This document shows positions 2,610-23,295 of a stretch of 64,000 nt of DNA, piece after piece. The DNA comes from Actinomycetota bacterium. GTDB taxonomy: Bacteria; Actinomycetota; Actinomycetes; S36-B12. A program made the translations under genes and the position numbers. The notes under the pieces are model-generated. The model did no database searches, had not been told where the DNA came from, and was given only the letters and a program-made list of their open reading frames with translations. Position 1 is the stretch's first letter. Each line of letters starts with the position of its first letter. The stretch is from NCBI GenBank assembly GCA_016717115.1, contig JADKGE010000003.1, forward strand, positions 21,037-85,036. The letters run 5' to 3'.

Positions 2610-3065
2610 ATGGATCCCCGCCCTCCACTCCCTCCCTTCACCGAGGAGACCGCTCGCGCGAAGGTGCAGGCGGCCGAGAACGGCTGGAACACCCGGGACC
2701 CCGAACGCGTGGCCGCCGCCTACACCGAGGACACGGAGTGGCGGAACAGAAGTGAGCACGTCGTCGGCCGGGAGGACGTCGTCGCCTTCCTGACGCGCAA
2801 GTGGGCGAAGGAGCACGACTACGCGCTGCGCAAGAGCCTGTGGGCGTTCTCGGGCAACCGCATCGCCGTGCGCTTCCAGTACGAGTGGCACGACGACGAG
2901 GGCCAGTGGTTCCGCAGCTACGGGAACGAGCAGTGGGAGTTCGACGACCTGGGCTACATGCGTCGTCGTGAGGCCAGCATCAACGACGTCGCGATCGCGG
3001 AGTCGGACAGGCGCATCTTCGGTCCTCGTGATCCGGACGACTCGAGCGACGTACCGGTCTTCTAG
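2610..3065 (+). CDS. DUF1348 / NTF2-like (SnoaL-fold) protein
   Basis: ATG 2610 preceded by GAGGAGG (inside ORF 2385..3065). [40 protein letters not shown]...[20 protein letters not shown] matches the DUF1348 pattern I know. Confidence 0.75.
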
Positions 3066-3622
3066 CCTAGGCGCAGCAGGTCGATGACCATCGGCTGGTG
3101 CGGCCGTGCATGGTAGGTCTCCTCGAAGCCGTCCGTCGTCCACCCGAGCCGCTCGAAGAAGCGGACGTTGGCGATCTGGATGTGCGCCTTCATGATCCGA
3201 CCGCCGTGCTCGGCAGCGGTCGACACCGCCAGCCGGACGAGATCCGACCCGAGCTGGTAGACGCGGAACTCGGGCTCGACCGCGAGCCGGTCCCCCTGCC
3301 AGACGTCGCCGGTCCTGTCCAGGGGATAGAGGCGCACCGCACCGACGACGCGCGATTCCGTCGCGCCGACGAGGTGGATCGTGTCAATCCGCTCGTCGAA
3401 CTCGTCGCGGTCGGTGGCCGGGAAGATGGCCTGCTCGACGACGAACACCTGATGTCGAATGGCGAAGTGCTCGTCGAGGTCCTCCGGGGTGAGGGCAGCC
3501 CTGCACTCGGTCCGGAGGAGCGGGACATCGTCTAGGCGAGTGATGTCGGTCCTCGCCCGATGGTGACGGGAACGGCGGTCGGCGCCGGCTCGAGGGACTT
3601 CAGCCCCGAGCAGGCCTGGCAC
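3062..3622 (-). CDS. GNAT N-acetyltransferase, MSMEG_0567/Sll0786 (Nit1C) type
   Basis: [15 protein letters not shown]...VVGAVRLYP...WQGDRLAV...[14 protein letters not shown]. Lies directly downstream of the radical SAM gene. The GTG start at 3622 would overlap that gene by 91 nt, so the true start is uncertain. Confidence 0.7.
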
Positions 3623-4725
3623 CGCGCGCAGCCGGCCTTCGTCGTGCCGGCATTCATCCCCCGCAGCGCCATGTAGGCCTGCACCTGTCGGTAGATGGGC
3701 TCGGTGTACTCGCGTGGCGGCGAGGGCCAGTCGGCCATGAGCGAACCGGCGACGGGGCGAAGCGGGACGACCAGCGGGAAGACGCCGATGTCAATGGCCC
3801 GCTTGGCTCCTTCGATCGTGATCTTCGGGTCCTCGCCCATGCCGAGGATGACGTAGGTCGACACCTGCCCCTCGCCGAACACCGCCACGGCTCGCTCCCA
3901 CGCGGCGAAGTAGGCCTCCATGCCCGTGCGCGACTTCGCCGGCGCCACGCGCGCCAGGACCGCGGGGTCGAAGGACTCGAGATGGATGCCGACGGAGTCG
4001 ACGCCCATGTCGCCCACCTCGTTGATCACGTTGAGGTCGAGGGGCGGCTCGAACTGCACCTCGACGGGCAGACCGCTGGCCTCCTTCACCGCCTGGGCGC
4101 ACTTGGCCACGTACCGGGCACCGCGATCGACACCGCGCGAGCTGCCGGTGGTCAAGGTGGCGTCGACGGCTCCATCGAGGTCGCGCGCCGCGACGGCGAC
4201 CTCGGCGAGCATCTCGGGGGTCTTCTTCACGATGGTGCGGCCCGCGTCCAGCGACAGGCCGATGCCGCAGAAGGTGCACTGGTCGTCGTTGCCCCAGTAG
4301 GCGCACGTCTGCACGACTGTCGACGCCAGCGAGTCGAGGTGCAGCAGGGCGATCTGCTCGTACGGGATCCCGTCGGCGGTGGTGAGGTCGTAGAAGGCGG
4401 GTCGCTGCTGGGTGCGAGCGCTGGCGAGTCTCGTCGACCCGAGGTAGACGCCGTAGCCGTCGTCCTCGGCGCGCAGGACGTAGGGCGTGTCCTCGGGCTT
4501 CGCCTTGGGGGCCGTGACGCGGTAGCCGTCGATCCACAGCATCCCGAGGTCGGTGGGCCCGGCGCCGCCGACCCGCTGCTCGATGGGTCCGTCCATCTGG
4601 ACGCCACGTGCCTGGATGTCGATGGTCAGGCTGCTGATGTCCATGGGCCGGGTGAAGCCGGCGAGGAATCGTCCGTCGGCGTCCGGACCCTCGGTGACTC
4701 GTGCGTAGTCCAACTGTGTGGTCAT
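3532..4725 (-). CDS. radical SAM protein, MSMEG_0568 (Nit1C) type
   Basis: 397-aa ORF with ATG 4725. Cys cluster TCAYWGNDDQCTFCGI. The GNAT partner lies immediately downstream, as in Nit1C clusters. Confidence 0.7.
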   Translation of the reverse strand: MTTQLDYARVTEGPDADGRFLAGFTRPMDISSLTIDIQARGVQMDGPIEQRVGGAGPTDLGMLWIDGYRVTAPKAKPEDTPYVLRAEDDGYGVYLGSTRLASARTQQRPAFYDLTTADGIPYEQIALLHLDSLASTVVQTCAYWGNDDQCTFCGIGLSLDAGRTIVKKTPEMLAEVAVAARDLDGAVDATLTTGSSRGVDRGARYVAKCAQAVKEASGLPVEVQFEPPLDLNVINEVGDMGVDSVGIHLESFDPAVLARVAPAKSRTGMEAYFAAWERAVAVFGEGQVSTYVILGMGEDPKITIEGAKRAIDIGVFPLVVPLRPVAGSLMADWPSPPREYTEPIYRQVQAYMALRGMNAGTTKAGCARCQACSGLKSLEPAPTAVPVTIGRGPTSLA

Positions 4726-4836
4726 TCTCGCGCTCCGTTCAGGTTGTGCCGCTTGAGACGACCCCCGCGGTGCCGCTAACTGGATTGATCGAAGGCAACA
4801 TCATAGGAAGGTTGACGGCAAATCGGATAGGAAATT

Positions 4837-5478
4837 TCACGTCGTCTTGTGTCGCCACTCGTCGGCGGTGGCCAGCCACGTGGCCCGGTCGGGGCACTCG
4901 GCCGTCTCGCGCCCGCCTGCGGGATCCACGAGAGTCACGCGAAAGACGGGTTCGCCGGTACTCGGCTGCATGGAGACGGATCGCACCAGTTCGGCGCCCG
5001 AGGCGATGTGGACCTCGACCCATTCCTGGGTGGGCGACATGCCCAGGGTGGCCGCGTCCGGCTCGGACACCGTGACCCAGGCCAGCCCCGCAGCTCGCGC
5101 CTCCTCGACCCTCGTGCTGGTGCGATCCAGCGCGGTGAGCATCAGCAGGGCCCGAAAGCGCTGCGACATGGCCGCATCGACCACCATGTCGAGGTCGAGG
5201 TCCGCGATGGGGAGGGCCTGGCGACTGGCGATCTCCCGGGCGTTGGCCACTGCGGCCGCGTGGCCGCTCTCGAGATCGGCGAGCGTCGAGTCGGCGAAGT
5301 AGGCCGTCAGTTGGCCGATGAGGGTGATGGCGCGCTGGTAGCGGTCGGCGTCGACCATGACGAGCGGGAAGACCTGGTCCTCGGCGGCTCGAAGGCGAGT
5401 CGCCAGCGCGCGGTACTCAGGGGGGATCGCCGACGACTGATCGGCTCCGAATGCGGGGGACGGCGGGATGTTGTTCAC
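4837..5478 (-). CDS. hypothetical protein heading the radical SAM-GNAT operon
   Basis: 213-aa ORF with very high GC3 throughout; I recognise no motif. The GTG start at 5478 lies inside the CACTATAGTG palindrome, so the start is uncertain. Confidence 0.55.
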   Translation of the reverse strand: MNNIPPSPAFGADQSSAIPPEYRALATRLRAAEDQVFPLVMVDADRYQRAITLIGQLTAYFADSTLADLESGHAAAVANAREIASRQALPIADLDLDMVVDAAMSQRFRALLMLTALDRTSTRVEEARAAGLAWVTVSEPDAATLGMSPTQEWVEVHIASGAELVRSVSMQPSTGEPVFRVTLVDPAGGRETAECPDRATWLATADEWRHKTT

Positions 5479-21605: not shown

Positions 21606-21632
21606 CGACCGCGGCAGCCATGGGAGGCAAGC

Positions 21633-22316
21633 ATGACGACAATCCAACCCGCGAGCGGCATCGCCGACATGGGGGGCACGGACGGTTGGGGCACAGCGCC
21701 GACCATCGACCCGAACGAGAAGGTGTTCAAGGAGCCTTGGGAAGGACGGGCGTTCGCCCTGTCCCTGCTCTCCATGCGGCTCTCGGGCACCAACCTCGAC
21801 GCCTTCCGTCACTCGATGAACCGCCTCGATCGCGAGCACTACATCGATGACGGCTACTACGGCCGCTGGCTGTACGGCGCCGAGAACCTGCTCATGGACA
21901 GCGACATCATCGCGCCGGGCACGGTCGAGGCGCGGGCGGTCAACCTGTCGGGTGGCCATGCGGATGAGCCGCCGGCTCCGGAGCCGCACAAGCCTGACTA
22001 CGCCCCGACCGCGGCCGGGTCGCTTCGGCAGATCGATGCCGAGCCGACGTTCGCCGTGGGCCAGCGGGTGCGGGCCAAGGTCCAGCAGGCACCGGGCCAC
22101 ACCCGGCTGCAGCACTACATCCAGGGGCACGTCGGAACGGTCGCGATCATCGAGCCGCCGCAGGTGCTCCCCGACACGCACGCGCACTTCATCGCGGAGA
22201 ACGCGCAGTGGGTCTACACGGTCGCCTTCGACTCGCACGAGCTCTTCGGCCCTGACGCCGAGCGCTTCACTCTGAACACCGACTGCTACGAGGACTACCT
22301 TGAGGATGCGTCATGA
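21633..22316 (+). CDS. nthB: nitrile hydratase beta subunit
   Basis: ATG 21633 preceded by GGGAGG (in frame in ORF 21567..22316). [27 protein letters not shown]. 227 aa. Its stop overlaps the alpha start. Confidence 0.85.
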
Positions 22317-22912
22317 CGTCTGAACTGACAGTGAACGACCACGTTCCGATCCAGCTGCGCACCGAGGCGCTCGAGGACCTCCTGGTCGAGCGCGGACTCA
22401 TCGATCGCGCCGTCATGGACAACTTCATCAAGACGTACGAGCAGGACGTCGGCCCGCTGAACGGGGCCAAGGTCGTCGCCAAGGCGTGGACCGATCCCGA
22501 GTACAGGGAGCGGTTGCTGGACAACGGCACGACCGCCGTGGCCGAACTCGGATTCAAGGGTCCGCAGGGCGAGCACATCGTCGTCGTCCAGAACTCCGCG
22601 GACGTTCACAACGTGGTGGTCTGCACGCTCTGCTCCTGCTACCCCTGGCCACTTCTCGGCCTGCCGCCCGCTTGGTACAAGGACCCCGCCTACCGCTCGC
22701 GAGTGGTCAAAGAGCCTCGTCAGGTGCTGTCCGAGATGGGTCTCGACGTCCCGGAGTCGAAGGAGATCAAGGTCTGGGACAGCAGCTCAGAGGTGCGCTT
22801 CTTCGTCCTTCCGGAGCGACCGGCCGGTACCGACGGACTGAGCGAGGAGGAGCTGGTCCCGCTCATCACGCGCGATGCGATGGTCGGCGTGGCCGTGGTG
22901 GGTTCCCCATGA
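22313..22912 (+). CDS. nthA: nitrile hydratase alpha subunit, cobalt type
   Basis: Metal-binding motif [12 protein letters not shown] (Thr/Tyr variant typical of Co-type enzymes). 199 aa. Confidence 0.9.
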
Positions 22913-23295
22913 CCGCCATGGCCCAGCTCGACGTCGACGGCGAGGCGGCTCCGCCCAGGTCGAACGGCGAGCTCGTCTTCGCGGAGCCGTGGGAGAGCCG
23001 CGCGTTCGGCCTGTGCATGACGCTGTACGAAGCCGGACTCTTCACTTGGGACGAGTTCCGCGACGAGCTGATCGCCGCGATCTCCACGTGGGAGGACGAT
23101 GCCCAGCCCGGTGACTGCTACTCGTACTACCGGTGCTGGCTCACGGCGCTGGAGCGGGTTGTCGTCGCGAAGGAGATCCTCACCGAGGATGCCCTCGAGC
23201 ACCGTGCCGAGGAACTCGCCGCGCGTCCTGCCGGGTACGACCACGGTCACGAGCATGGTCACGACCACGACCACGACCACGACCACGACCACTGA
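22909..23295 (+). CDS. nitrile hydratase accessory (activator) protein with His/Asp-rich tail
   Basis: ATG 22909 (ATGA overlap), in frame in ORF 22486..23295. [30 protein letters not shown] is the beta-like accessory-protein motif. C-terminus [20 protein letters not shown]. Confidence 0.8.

Follow-up and report, generated by a model that had tools for sequence, protein, structure and literature searches.

The DNA analysed here, hereafter the window, is a stretch of 64,000 nucleotides (64 kb) from an Actinomycetota bacterium (assembly GCA_016717115.1, contig JADKGE010000003.1). Between 3.0 and 24.3 kb it holds a gene system of ~22 kb, hereafter the block, in which proteins of the Nit1C cluster occur together with a cobalt-type nitrile hydratase (NHase), homologues of the coenzyme M (CoM) biosynthesis proteins XcbA-E and homologues of the oxamic transcarbamylase AllFGH. 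In one otherwise conserved system, the NHase, a Nit6803 nitrilase and an Amidohydro_2 protein were found to be mutually exclusive. Nit1C is a conserved cluster of obscure function, of which only the nitrilase-containing seven-gene form has been described (PMC1199592, PMC7815647, PMC11049912), and Podar et al. (2005, PMC1199592) described it as bound without exception to subfamily-1 nitrilases. Nitrogen starvation induces the classical cluster, and growth with cyanide as the source of nitrogen depends on it (PMC11049912, PMC7815647). The substrate of its nitrilase and the roles of its other genes have been unsolved for twenty years (PMC1199592, PMC7815647, PMC11049912).

Because the G+C content of the window is ~67%, third-position GC was used to choose the real open reading frames (ORFs). 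Genes were assigned with NCBIfam and Pfam profiles and with the genes called on public contigs whose proteins are identical. All genes named in an initial annotation, which was made from the sequence alone, were recovered at the same coordinates, including the NiCoT permease. Ten genes of the block (XcbA-E, AllF/G/H, carbamate kinase and OsmC) and a helix-turn-helix (HTH)-cupin regulator had gone unrecognised. The genes are as follows, with profile scores in bits:

3062-3622 (-): GNAT N-acetyltransferase, MSMEG_0567/Sll0786 family (NitE-like); TIGR04045 111.9, cutoff 68.45
3532-4725 (-): radical SAM protein, MSMEG_0568 family (NitD-like); TIGR04043 366.4, cutoff 303.7
4837-5478 (-): conserved 213-aa protein, upstream of the radical SAM gene; no Pfam or NCBIfam match
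5557-6528 (+): carbamate kinase; PRK12352 309.8, cutoff 266; arcC 343.1, cutoff 358
6525-8066 (+): AllF/FdrA-like subunit (oxamic-transcarbamylase type); NF004760 402.3, below cutoff 433
8063-9229 (+): GT4 glycosyltransferase, MSMEG_0565 family; TIGR04047 354.4, cutoff 259.85
9220-10224 (-): AIR-synthase-like protein (PurM superfamily), closest to the sll0787 family (NitF-like); TIGR04049 262.7, cutoff 321.3; Pfam AIRS, AIRS_C
10293-11072 (+): phosphosulfolactate synthase (ComA/XcbB-like); TIGR03849 238.5, cutoff 280
11119-12450 (+): XcbD-like, aspartase/fumarase superfamily; NF052536 542.5, cutoff 600
12447-13409 (+): XcbE-like pyridoxal phosphate (PLP) enzyme (D-cysteine desulfhydrase/CuyA family); NF052537 202, cutoff 450; CuyA 180
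13406-14884 (+): XcbC-like, aspartase/fumarase superfamily; NF052535 405.2, cutoff 575
14881-16296 (+): AllG-like subunit, coupled to xcbC by a 4-nt overlap; Pfam PF06545 201.5
16302-17132 (+): AllH-like subunit; Pfam PF11392 78.2
17006-18088 (-): NiCoT (HoxN/NixA-type) nickel/cobalt permease; TIGR00802 282.8, below cutoff 333; Pfam NicO
18205-18606 (+): OsmC/Ohr-like protein; NF041052 62.8, cutoff 95; Pfam OsmC
18603-19370 (-): HTH_3 + cupin (PuuR-like) regulator, divergent from the flavoprotein operon
19427-20770 (+): single-cysteine pyridine-nucleotide disulfide oxidoreductase of 447 aa, class of CoA-disulfide reductase, CoA-persulfide reductase and NADH oxidase (the flavoprotein)
20772-21023 (+): conserved 83-aa protein with PGSHRKxW motif and no cysteine; no family match
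21063-21551 (+): MSMEG_0572/Sll0783 protein (NitB), 162 aa; TIGR04044 197.4, cutoff 109.85
21633-22316 (+): NHase beta subunit, GYYGRW subfamily; TIGR03888 154.3, barely above cutoff 152.2
22313-22912 (+): cobalt-type NHase alpha subunit, VCTLCSC at 22622; TIGR01323 306.6, cutoff 249.85
22909-23295 (+): NHase accessory (activator) protein; TIGR03889 80.4, cutoff 46
23325-24254 (-): XcbA-family protein (DUF7714), just past the end of the block as first annotated; NF052538 392.6, cutoff 150

The longest ORF of the GNAT gene shares 91 nt with the radical SAM gene, and its true start is therefore probably near 3535. The XcbE-like gene, which a simple ORF listing did not catch, is called as a 320-aa PALP gene on the identical public contigs. 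The frames of AllH and the NiCoT permease converge with a 127-nt overlap, and one of the two genes may end earlier than its ORF. Overlaps of 4 nt link the carbamate kinase, AllF and glycosyltransferase genes (the last being translationally coupled to allF), the series XcbD-XcbE-XcbC-AllG, and the beta, alpha and accessory genes of the NHase. As these overlaps run across modules, the 'modules' are physically interleaved.

Relation to the Nit1C cluster

The block shares NitB, the radical SAM protein, the GNAT, the AIR-synthase homologue and the glycosyltransferase with Nit1C, known as nitBCDEFGH in cyanide-assimilating Pseudomonas and also as sll0783-0787 and MSMEG_0565-0572. The initial annotation had described it as a set of Nit1C signature proteins without the nitrilase, and the profile searches agree for the most part. 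MSMEG_0565, 0567, 0568 and 0572 score above their cutoffs, the sll0787 model is the best match of the AIR-synthase-like protein while staying below its cutoff, and no homologue of MSMEG_0569 or MSMEG_0570 was found. Identity to the Acinetobacter Nit1C proteins is 40% for the radical SAM protein and 33% for the AIR-synthase-like protein. Two Nit6803-family nitrilases, encoded in annotated Nit1C clusters of Acinetobacter and Methylocystis plasmids, served as tblastn queries and gave a best E of 1.3 over the 64-kb window, and no frame of the window contains a C-W-E nitrilase motif. Instead of the nitrilase, MSMEG_0569 and MSMEG_0570 the block has the NHase, a flavoprotein resembling CoA-disulfide reductase (CoADR) and an unrelated 83-aa protein. 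It adds XcbA-E, AllF/G/H, carbamate kinase and OsmC, and it has the HTH-cupin regulator where Nit1C has a sigma-54 regulator.

The 213-aa gene sits where canonical Nit1C has its nitrilase, upstream of the radical SAM gene, and it adjoins that gene in 27 of 80 related loci (described below). The protein has 17 homologues only, every one of them hypothetical, and its AlphaFold2 (AF2) model, with a mean predicted local distance difference test (pLDDT) of 88.4, has no fold match in the Protein Data Bank (PDB) at E < 0.4.

The genes for the 447-, 83- and 162-aa proteins just upstream of the NHase had been equated with MSMEG_0569, 0570 and 0572. This holds for the 162-aa protein (TIGR04044), and the other two are not homologous. 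The flavoprotein shares only GxGxxG with an MSMEG_0569 protein in blastp, and tblastn of that protein gave a best E of 1.3 in the window; TIGR04046 is not among the best 25 of the flavoprotein's 40 profile matches, the lowest of these 25 having 46 bits. It matches CoA-disulfide reductase, NADH oxidase (Nox) and CoA-persulfide reductase best. Cys44 in YSPCGIP, the one redox cysteine that marks the CoADR/Nox class, is conserved in 79/79 orthologues. The 83-aa protein was rejected as MSMEG_0570, as it has no NCBIfam match at E <= 0.1 and hhalign of its family profile gave a probability of 2%; tblastn of an MSMEG_0570 protein against the window reached a best E of 0.84.

For NitB, a sequence search against PDB returned only spurious repeat matches to DARPins, so that a fold search was needed to reveal its DsrE-like fold. 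The AF2 model (pLDDT 79.5) is DsrE/TusD-like, and Foldseek found DsrE-family matches down to E = 2.9e-6. DsrE/TusD proteins are cysteine-persulfide carriers. In NitB, Cys115 is invariant, with ACRFA kept in 86/86 sequences. The model agrees with the assignment of the NitB-family ORF1 as YchN-like by Podar et al. (PMC1199592).

The nitrile hydratase and its exchange with two other hydrolases

The block is predicted to encode a complete cobalt-type NHase. As the initial annotation had stated, the alpha subunit carries VCTLCSC and there is no amidase; alpha, beta and accessory proteins all exceed their NCBIfam cutoffs, and alpha matches the PDB cobalt NHase 4ob1 at 319 bits. With classical cobalt NHase operons (PDB 1ire, 3qxe and 2dpp; Klebsiella, Parageobacillus and Rhodococcus plasmids) it has in common the VCTLCSC alpha subunit, the beta subunit, the accessory protein and a cobalt transporter. 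Firstly, however, it differs in lacking the amidase that the classical Klebsiella and Parageobacillus operons carry: tblastn with two amidases of classical hydratase operons gave nothing at E <= 1e-3 in the window, and a GGSSGS amidase motif occurs in none of its frames. Secondly, it is set among NitB, flavoprotein and Xcb genes. Lastly, its beta subunit has GYYGRW at the segment where classical subunits show YYEHW, YYGHW or YYTHW.

GYYGRW is present in 72 of 73 cluster-type beta subunits and the remaining one has GCYGRY, with the Arg kept in 73/73. In the Pseudonocardia thermophila NHase the pocket residues beta-Tyr68 and beta-Trp72 lie in the YYxHW segment. With three classical NHase operons as references, the beta subunit of the window is 53-85% identical to other cluster-linked ones and 30-36% to the classical ones, and in a neighbour-joining tree the cluster-linked beta subunits are monophyletic against these references. 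Judged by their sequences, the cluster-linked hydratases form a beta-subunit subfamily of their own. The subfamily thus defined probably has a distinct, specific substrate.

The C-terminal tail of the accessory protein (22909-23295) is rich in His and Asp and is presumably a metal-binding extension. Between the NitB stop and the beta start, which are 81 nt apart, a hairpin was spotted by eye (21557-21596, +; stem ~18 bp, minimum free energy -49.6 kcal/mol, z = -3.66), followed by GUCUUUUCCC. Possibly it is an attenuator or an mRNA processing or stability element that sets the ratio of NitB to hydratase expression. A promoter/terminator scan gave nothing beyond shuffled expectation, nor did the window offer a riboswitch or other RNA hint at the ligand, as all Rfam families stayed below their gathering scores.

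Conservation was examined by scanning one genome per species (Genome Taxonomy Database), which gave 365 loci with MSMEG_0572 relatives. The closest 80 were inspected, each with 10 kb on either side, and seven further loci were added; a second survey, which began with the NitB of Methylocystis, brought up additional versions. Organisms are named as in the public records, and some of these names are plainly wrong: four freshwater records of metagenome-assembled genomes (MAGs) titled 'Bifidobacterium breve' (L013, L016, L017, L022) are implausible and look like a labelling error. The 80 loci come from Nanopelagicales, other freshwater Actinomycetota MAGs, Acidimicrobiia, Nonomuraea, Streptosporangium, Planosporangium, Asanoa, Streptomyces chiangmaiensis, Lapillicoccus, a Dormibacterota MAG and a MAG labelled Bacillota. 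Twenty-four window proteins were mapped onto all of them, and the mosaic recurs across phyla in several gene orders and orientations. The MSMEG_0572 family is very conserved; the flavoprotein, the 83-aa protein and NitB are present in 76, 79 and 80 of the 80 loci, the HTH-cupin regulator in 72 and OsmC in 64. In 65 of the 74 loci that have enough downstream sequence to be evaluated, the distance between NHase alpha and MSMEG_0572 is no more than 2.5 kb, and the gene-neighbourhood survey that the initial annotation had suggested thus found the juxtaposition conserved. Further lineages, including a Pseudomonadales MAG, keep the hydratase linkage in other layouts.

The most constant core consists of the regulator, the flavoprotein, the small protein, MSMEG_0572, the hydratase, OsmC and Xcb. 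Usually AllF/G/H, carbamate kinase, the radical SAM protein, the GNAT, the AIR-synthase-like protein and the glycosyltransferase travel with this core. In two hydratase loci the core (Xcb, regulator, hydratase, OsmC, flavoprotein, small protein and NitB) is followed by unrelated genes, with no radical SAM, GNAT or AIR-synthase gene within 10 kb. The full cluster of the Pseudomonadales MAG has CbtB/CbtA (L102, 7196-8220) instead of NiCoT as cobalt transporter; from these gene contents, cobalt supply appears to have been co-recruited non-orthologously, and the system thus shows a second exchange of this kind. On a 1.3-Mb metagenome contig (L099, 1557-2084) a gene with a weak Pfam match to AmiS/UreI-type channels lies between the hydratase and radical SAM genes. 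It hints that the product or substrate of the hydratase is a small neutral amide or urea.

An independent nitrile-catabolic hydratase operon might simply have come to lie beside Nit1C-type genes, by chance or convenience. The alpha subunit would suit such an origin, being of the typical cobalt type, and so would an orphan NHase of the same subfamily on a plasmid of Streptomyces sp. NBC_00841 (L105, 11333-12959; beta with GYYGRW, alpha 70% identical), which sits among IS21/IS5 elements without other genes of the system. The orphan copy indicates that the hydratase operon can move alone. However, hydratase and MSMEG_0572 lie close together in 65 of 74 evaluable genomes, one per species, which belong to several classes and phyla and show several gene orders. 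This speaks against such an accident, as do a beta subfamily specific to the cluster context, the absence of the amidase partner of classical operons and the mutual exclusivity with two other hydrolases. We regard a mere juxtaposition as extremely improbable and conclude from the genomic context that the hydratase is likely a functional member of the system.

The exclusivity is seen as follows. Tblastn found no Nit6803 nitrilase in any of the 80 loci. Plasmids of Methylocystis iwaonis carry the same extended mosaic with a Nit6803 nitrilase that overlaps the radical SAM gene, and these clusters have neither NHase nor Amidohydro_2. Their orthologues are 61% identical for the flavoprotein, 65% for NitB, 69% for the regulator and 49% for AllF; the small protein, AllG, the glycosyltransferase, the AIR-synthase-like protein, the GNAT, the radical SAM protein, OsmC and XcbB/A/D/E/C have orthologues there as well. 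Six of the nine loci without NHase (actinobacterial or related) carry a 288-aa Amidohydro_2 protein (PF04909), whose gene directly follows NitB in Asanoa. The Amidohydro_2 gene occurs in no hydratase-bearing locus, nor in the window or Methylocystis. The conserved hydratase juxtaposition together with the Methylocystis nitrilase version makes non-orthologous displacement the natural reading, and these comparisons support a displacement between nitrilase and hydratase within one system.

The initial annotation had proposed just such a swap, in a narrower form: a standard Nit1C cluster in which the nitrilase alone was exchanged for a hydratase and the MSMEG_0569/0570/0572 neighbourhood was retained. 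In its favour are the four MSMEG families above their cutoffs, a flavoprotein and a small protein preceding MSMEG_0572, and a nitrile-hydrolysing enzyme directly after NitB, as in the canonical Acinetobacter cluster. Of the adjacency claimed, only this last contact, MSMEG_0572 to the nitrile enzyme, is preserved. The homology tests on the flavoprotein and the small protein largely refute the narrow form. The system also contains the ten further conserved genes listed above, the radical SAM, GNAT and AIR-synthase genes are not nearby in some hydratase-bearing loci, and since an extended cluster with a nitrilase exists, the difference from canonical Nit1C far exceeds one gene. A single-gene swap in an otherwise standard cluster is therefore very unlikely, and the block is better described as a larger mosaic than as Nit1C minus its nitrilase.

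As the initial annotation had supposed, no published account of the arrangement was found: the searchable literature to 2026, subscription-only papers not covered, gave no description of a hydratase-bearing or Xcb-linked Nit1C variant. No part falls outside known families; the combination, how widely it occurs, the exchange among three hydrolases and a hydratase subfamily dedicated to the system appear to be new.

Coenzyme M-type genes

In the Xcb pathway, phosphoenolpyruvate (PEP) and sulfite are converted via phosphosulfolactate, sulfoacrylate, a cysteine adduct and a thioaldehyde to CoM, and XcbA of Xanthobacter is the [2Fe-2S] reductase of the last step (PMC9457059). Bacterial CoM biosynthesis has been described only for alkene degraders. 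The block encodes homologues of all five proteins known from Xanthobacter autotrophicus Py2 (PMC9457059) and from plasmid pNOCA01 of Nocardioides sp. JS614, and here they sit in a cluster of nitrile/nitrogen type, whereas the Xanthobacter and JS614 genes sit in an alkene-oxidation cluster. XcbA, B, C, D and E of the window are 63, 46, 46, 50 and 37% identical to those of JS614, which in turn share 44, 36, 37, 44 and 45% with Xanthobacter; XcbA of the window is 43% identical to the Xanthobacter protein. Judged by these identities, the window set is as close to JS614 as JS614 is to the characterised Xanthobacter set. JS614 degrades ethene and vinyl chloride and is known to use CoM.

XcbC (405 bits, cutoff 575), XcbD (542, 600), XcbE (202, 450) and ComA (238, 280) of the window all remain below their NCBIfam cutoffs, which could be held against CoM synthesis. 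This objection is weakened, as JS614 is also below the cutoffs for XcbC (377.7), XcbE (315) and ComA (217). Since a CoM user misses the same cutoffs, these are narrow and the failure of the window proteins says little.

Alkene or epoxide metabolism was considered as the reason for the Xcb genes and rejected, as no epoxyalkane:CoM transferase, 2-ketopropyl-CoM oxidoreductase/carboxylase (2-KPCC) or CoM dehydrogenase was found nearby. The window has no homologue of the transferase or of 2-KPCC; among the 80 loci the transferase has no homologue either, and six show only a ~24-25%-identical match to 2-KPCC. The occurrence of the clusters suggests that CoM-type biosynthesis genes are far commoner than the 'small number of bacteria' known to use CoM, being found in Nanopelagicales, Acidimicrobiia, other Actinomycetota and some Proteobacteria.

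The order B-A-D-E-C of JS614 is retained in related clusters. In the window, xcbA lies on the opposite strand beyond the hydratase genes, not between xcbB and xcbD, and its product is 63% identical to XcbA of JS614 and 37-48% to that of most sister clusters (75% to L030). From its sequence and position, xcbA looks as if it had been replaced or relocated in this lineage.

Possible workings of the system

Four observations constrain the chemistry of Nit1C: the association of NitB with three exclusive C-N hydrolases, the flavoprotein of disulfide-reductase type, the sulfur-carrier fold of NitB with its invariant Cys, and the CoM-type pathway. They point to thiol- or sulfur-linked nitrile chemistry. 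With some confidence we propose that the block is a modular system in which the hydratase takes the hydrolytic C-N step that is held elsewhere by the Nit6803 nitrilase or by Amidohydro_2. Most likely, the hydratase performs the step of the Nit1C nitrilase on a specific small C≡N compound that is handled with the thiol/sulfur module. This compound would be handled with a CoM-type thiol, the flavoprotein and Cys115 of NitB, and the hydratase would convert it to an amide or carbamoyl compound. The AllFGH-like enzyme could then transfer the carbamoyl group to phosphate, and carbamate kinase would yield NH3, CO2 and ATP.

In E. coli, AllFGH is an oxamic transcarbamylase that converts oxalurate and phosphate to carbamoyl phosphate and oxamate (PMC11326118). 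Homologues of its three subunits and of the kinase of E. coli allFGH-allK are all present in the block; here the genes are split over two operons and coupled to xcbC and the glycosyltransferase gene. No allantoin-pathway gene was noticed in the block, although no search was aimed at such genes. The absence of an amidase and the interleaving of a transcarbamylase-like enzyme and carbamate kinase make the carbamoyl route the simplest supposition, though no more than a supposition.

Several points weigh against this proposal. The Methylocystis nitrilase adjoins the radical SAM gene and not MSMEG_0572, so that the 'slot' of the three enzymes is not positionally identical. No nitrile activity is known for Amidohydro_2 enzymes, and the shared step may therefore not be nitrile hydration. 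AllF and AllG are present in the nitrilase version of Methylocystis too, and some loci with a hydratase showed no AllFGH or carbamate kinase within 10 kb; both findings make it less likely that these enzymes act on the product of the hydratase. Among the Xcb proteins, XcbD and XcbE have diverged most (542 and 202 bits, compared to 695 and 315 for JS614), and the thiol could therefore be an analogue of CoM and not CoM itself. Lastly, the radical SAM, GNAT, AIR-synthase-like, glycosyltransferase, 83-aa and 213-aa proteins take no step in the proposal.

Alternatively, the system could be biosynthetic and produce a sulfonated small molecule or cofactor derived from a thiol. Xcb would then make a sulfonate-thiol scaffold, elaborated by the glycosyltransferase, GNAT, radical SAM and AIR-synthase-like proteins, and the hydrolases would be alternative tailoring enzymes that turn a nitrile or related group of the product into an amide or acid, with no release of nitrogen. 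Nitrile hydratases are known to tailor a nitrile to an amide in the conversion of toyocamycin to sangivamycin. A complete biosynthetic Xcb pathway is embedded in the block and translationally coupled with other members, and NCBI tags these families with 'biosynthetic process'. GT4 and GNAT proteins are typical of low-molecular-weight thiol biosynthesis, and the glycosyltransferase is weakly similar to MshA and BshA. The dedicated beta subfamily suggests one specific substrate, and with no amidase the amide may be the end product. However, the induction of Nit1C by nitrogen starvation and its need for growth on cyanide fit scavenging better (PMC11049912, PMC7815647), and carbamate kinase and AllFGH are a catabolic, ATP-yielding pair in E. 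coli (PMC11326118). Moreover, interchange of a hydratase, which gives an amide, and a nitrilase, which gives an acid, would lead to different final products. We therefore hold a biosynthetic system to be rather unlikely, though a serious competitor of the main proposal.

A more specific form of the scavenging proposal, which we put forward as a speculation and think improbable, is that a CoM or CoM-like thiol serves to capture and assimilate a CN unit, either cyanide or an equivalent. The CN unit would be bound as an S-cyano group on the thiol or on Cys115 of NitB, the Arg-bearing hydratase would hydrate this organic thiocyanate to an S-carbamoyl group, and the AllFGH-like enzyme would transfer the carbamoyl to phosphate, from which carbamate kinase would form NH3, CO2 and ATP. 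The CoADR-like flavoprotein would recycle thiol and disulfide, and the nitrilase of classical Nit1C would hydrolyse the same S-cyano species directly. The idea follows an analogy with HypF and HypE, which make the cyanide ligand of [NiFe]-hydrogenases and of which HypE converts S-carbamoyl to S-cyano groups and back. Comparable parts recur in the block, i.e. a carbamoyl-phosphate source, a carbamoyl transferase, an ATP-dependent enzyme of the PurM superfamily and a cysteine carrier, though as an analogy only. HypE-like self-modification of the AIR-synthase-like protein was considered and is unlikely, as it has no C-terminal cysteine. If CN capture were true, it would be the first bacterial role of CoM outside alkene and epoxide metabolism, and it would account for the requirement for Nit1C during growth on cyanide, on which its nitrilase barely acts. 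Natural 'swap' variants that can be cultured exist in Nonomuraea, Planosporangium, Asanoa, Streptomyces chiangmaiensis and Methylocystis iwaonis.

The neighbourhood of the block contains further genes. A DUF1348/SnoaL-like gene (2385-3065, +) runs towards the GNAT gene and overlaps it by 4 nt; its membership is doubtful because it lies near the cluster in only 3/80 loci. Directly downstream of the cluster are two NarK-type nitrate/nitrite transporters (25322-26650 and 26647-28023, both -), followed by a long operon on the plus strand (28086-32483, 32483-34111, 34101-34748) whose last gene encodes the NarI gamma subunit (34745-35479; TIGR00351 210.6 bits). With profile scans that covered NarK and NarI in this region (25322-35479), the operon looks like a respiratory nitrate reductase narGHJI; the nar neighbourhood is not kept in related loci. 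At 59897-61666 (-) a 589-aa protein is encoded in which a DsbD-type membrane domain is joined to redoxin/thioredoxin-like domains; it is probably unrelated to the cluster. Lastly, the second half of the window has a weak phage-integrase-like ORF (37550-39025, -), a Mutator-family transposase (48853-50142, +; Pfam 455 bits) and a fall in G+C to 0.61 at 44-46 kb, which suggests mobile or recently acquired DNA.

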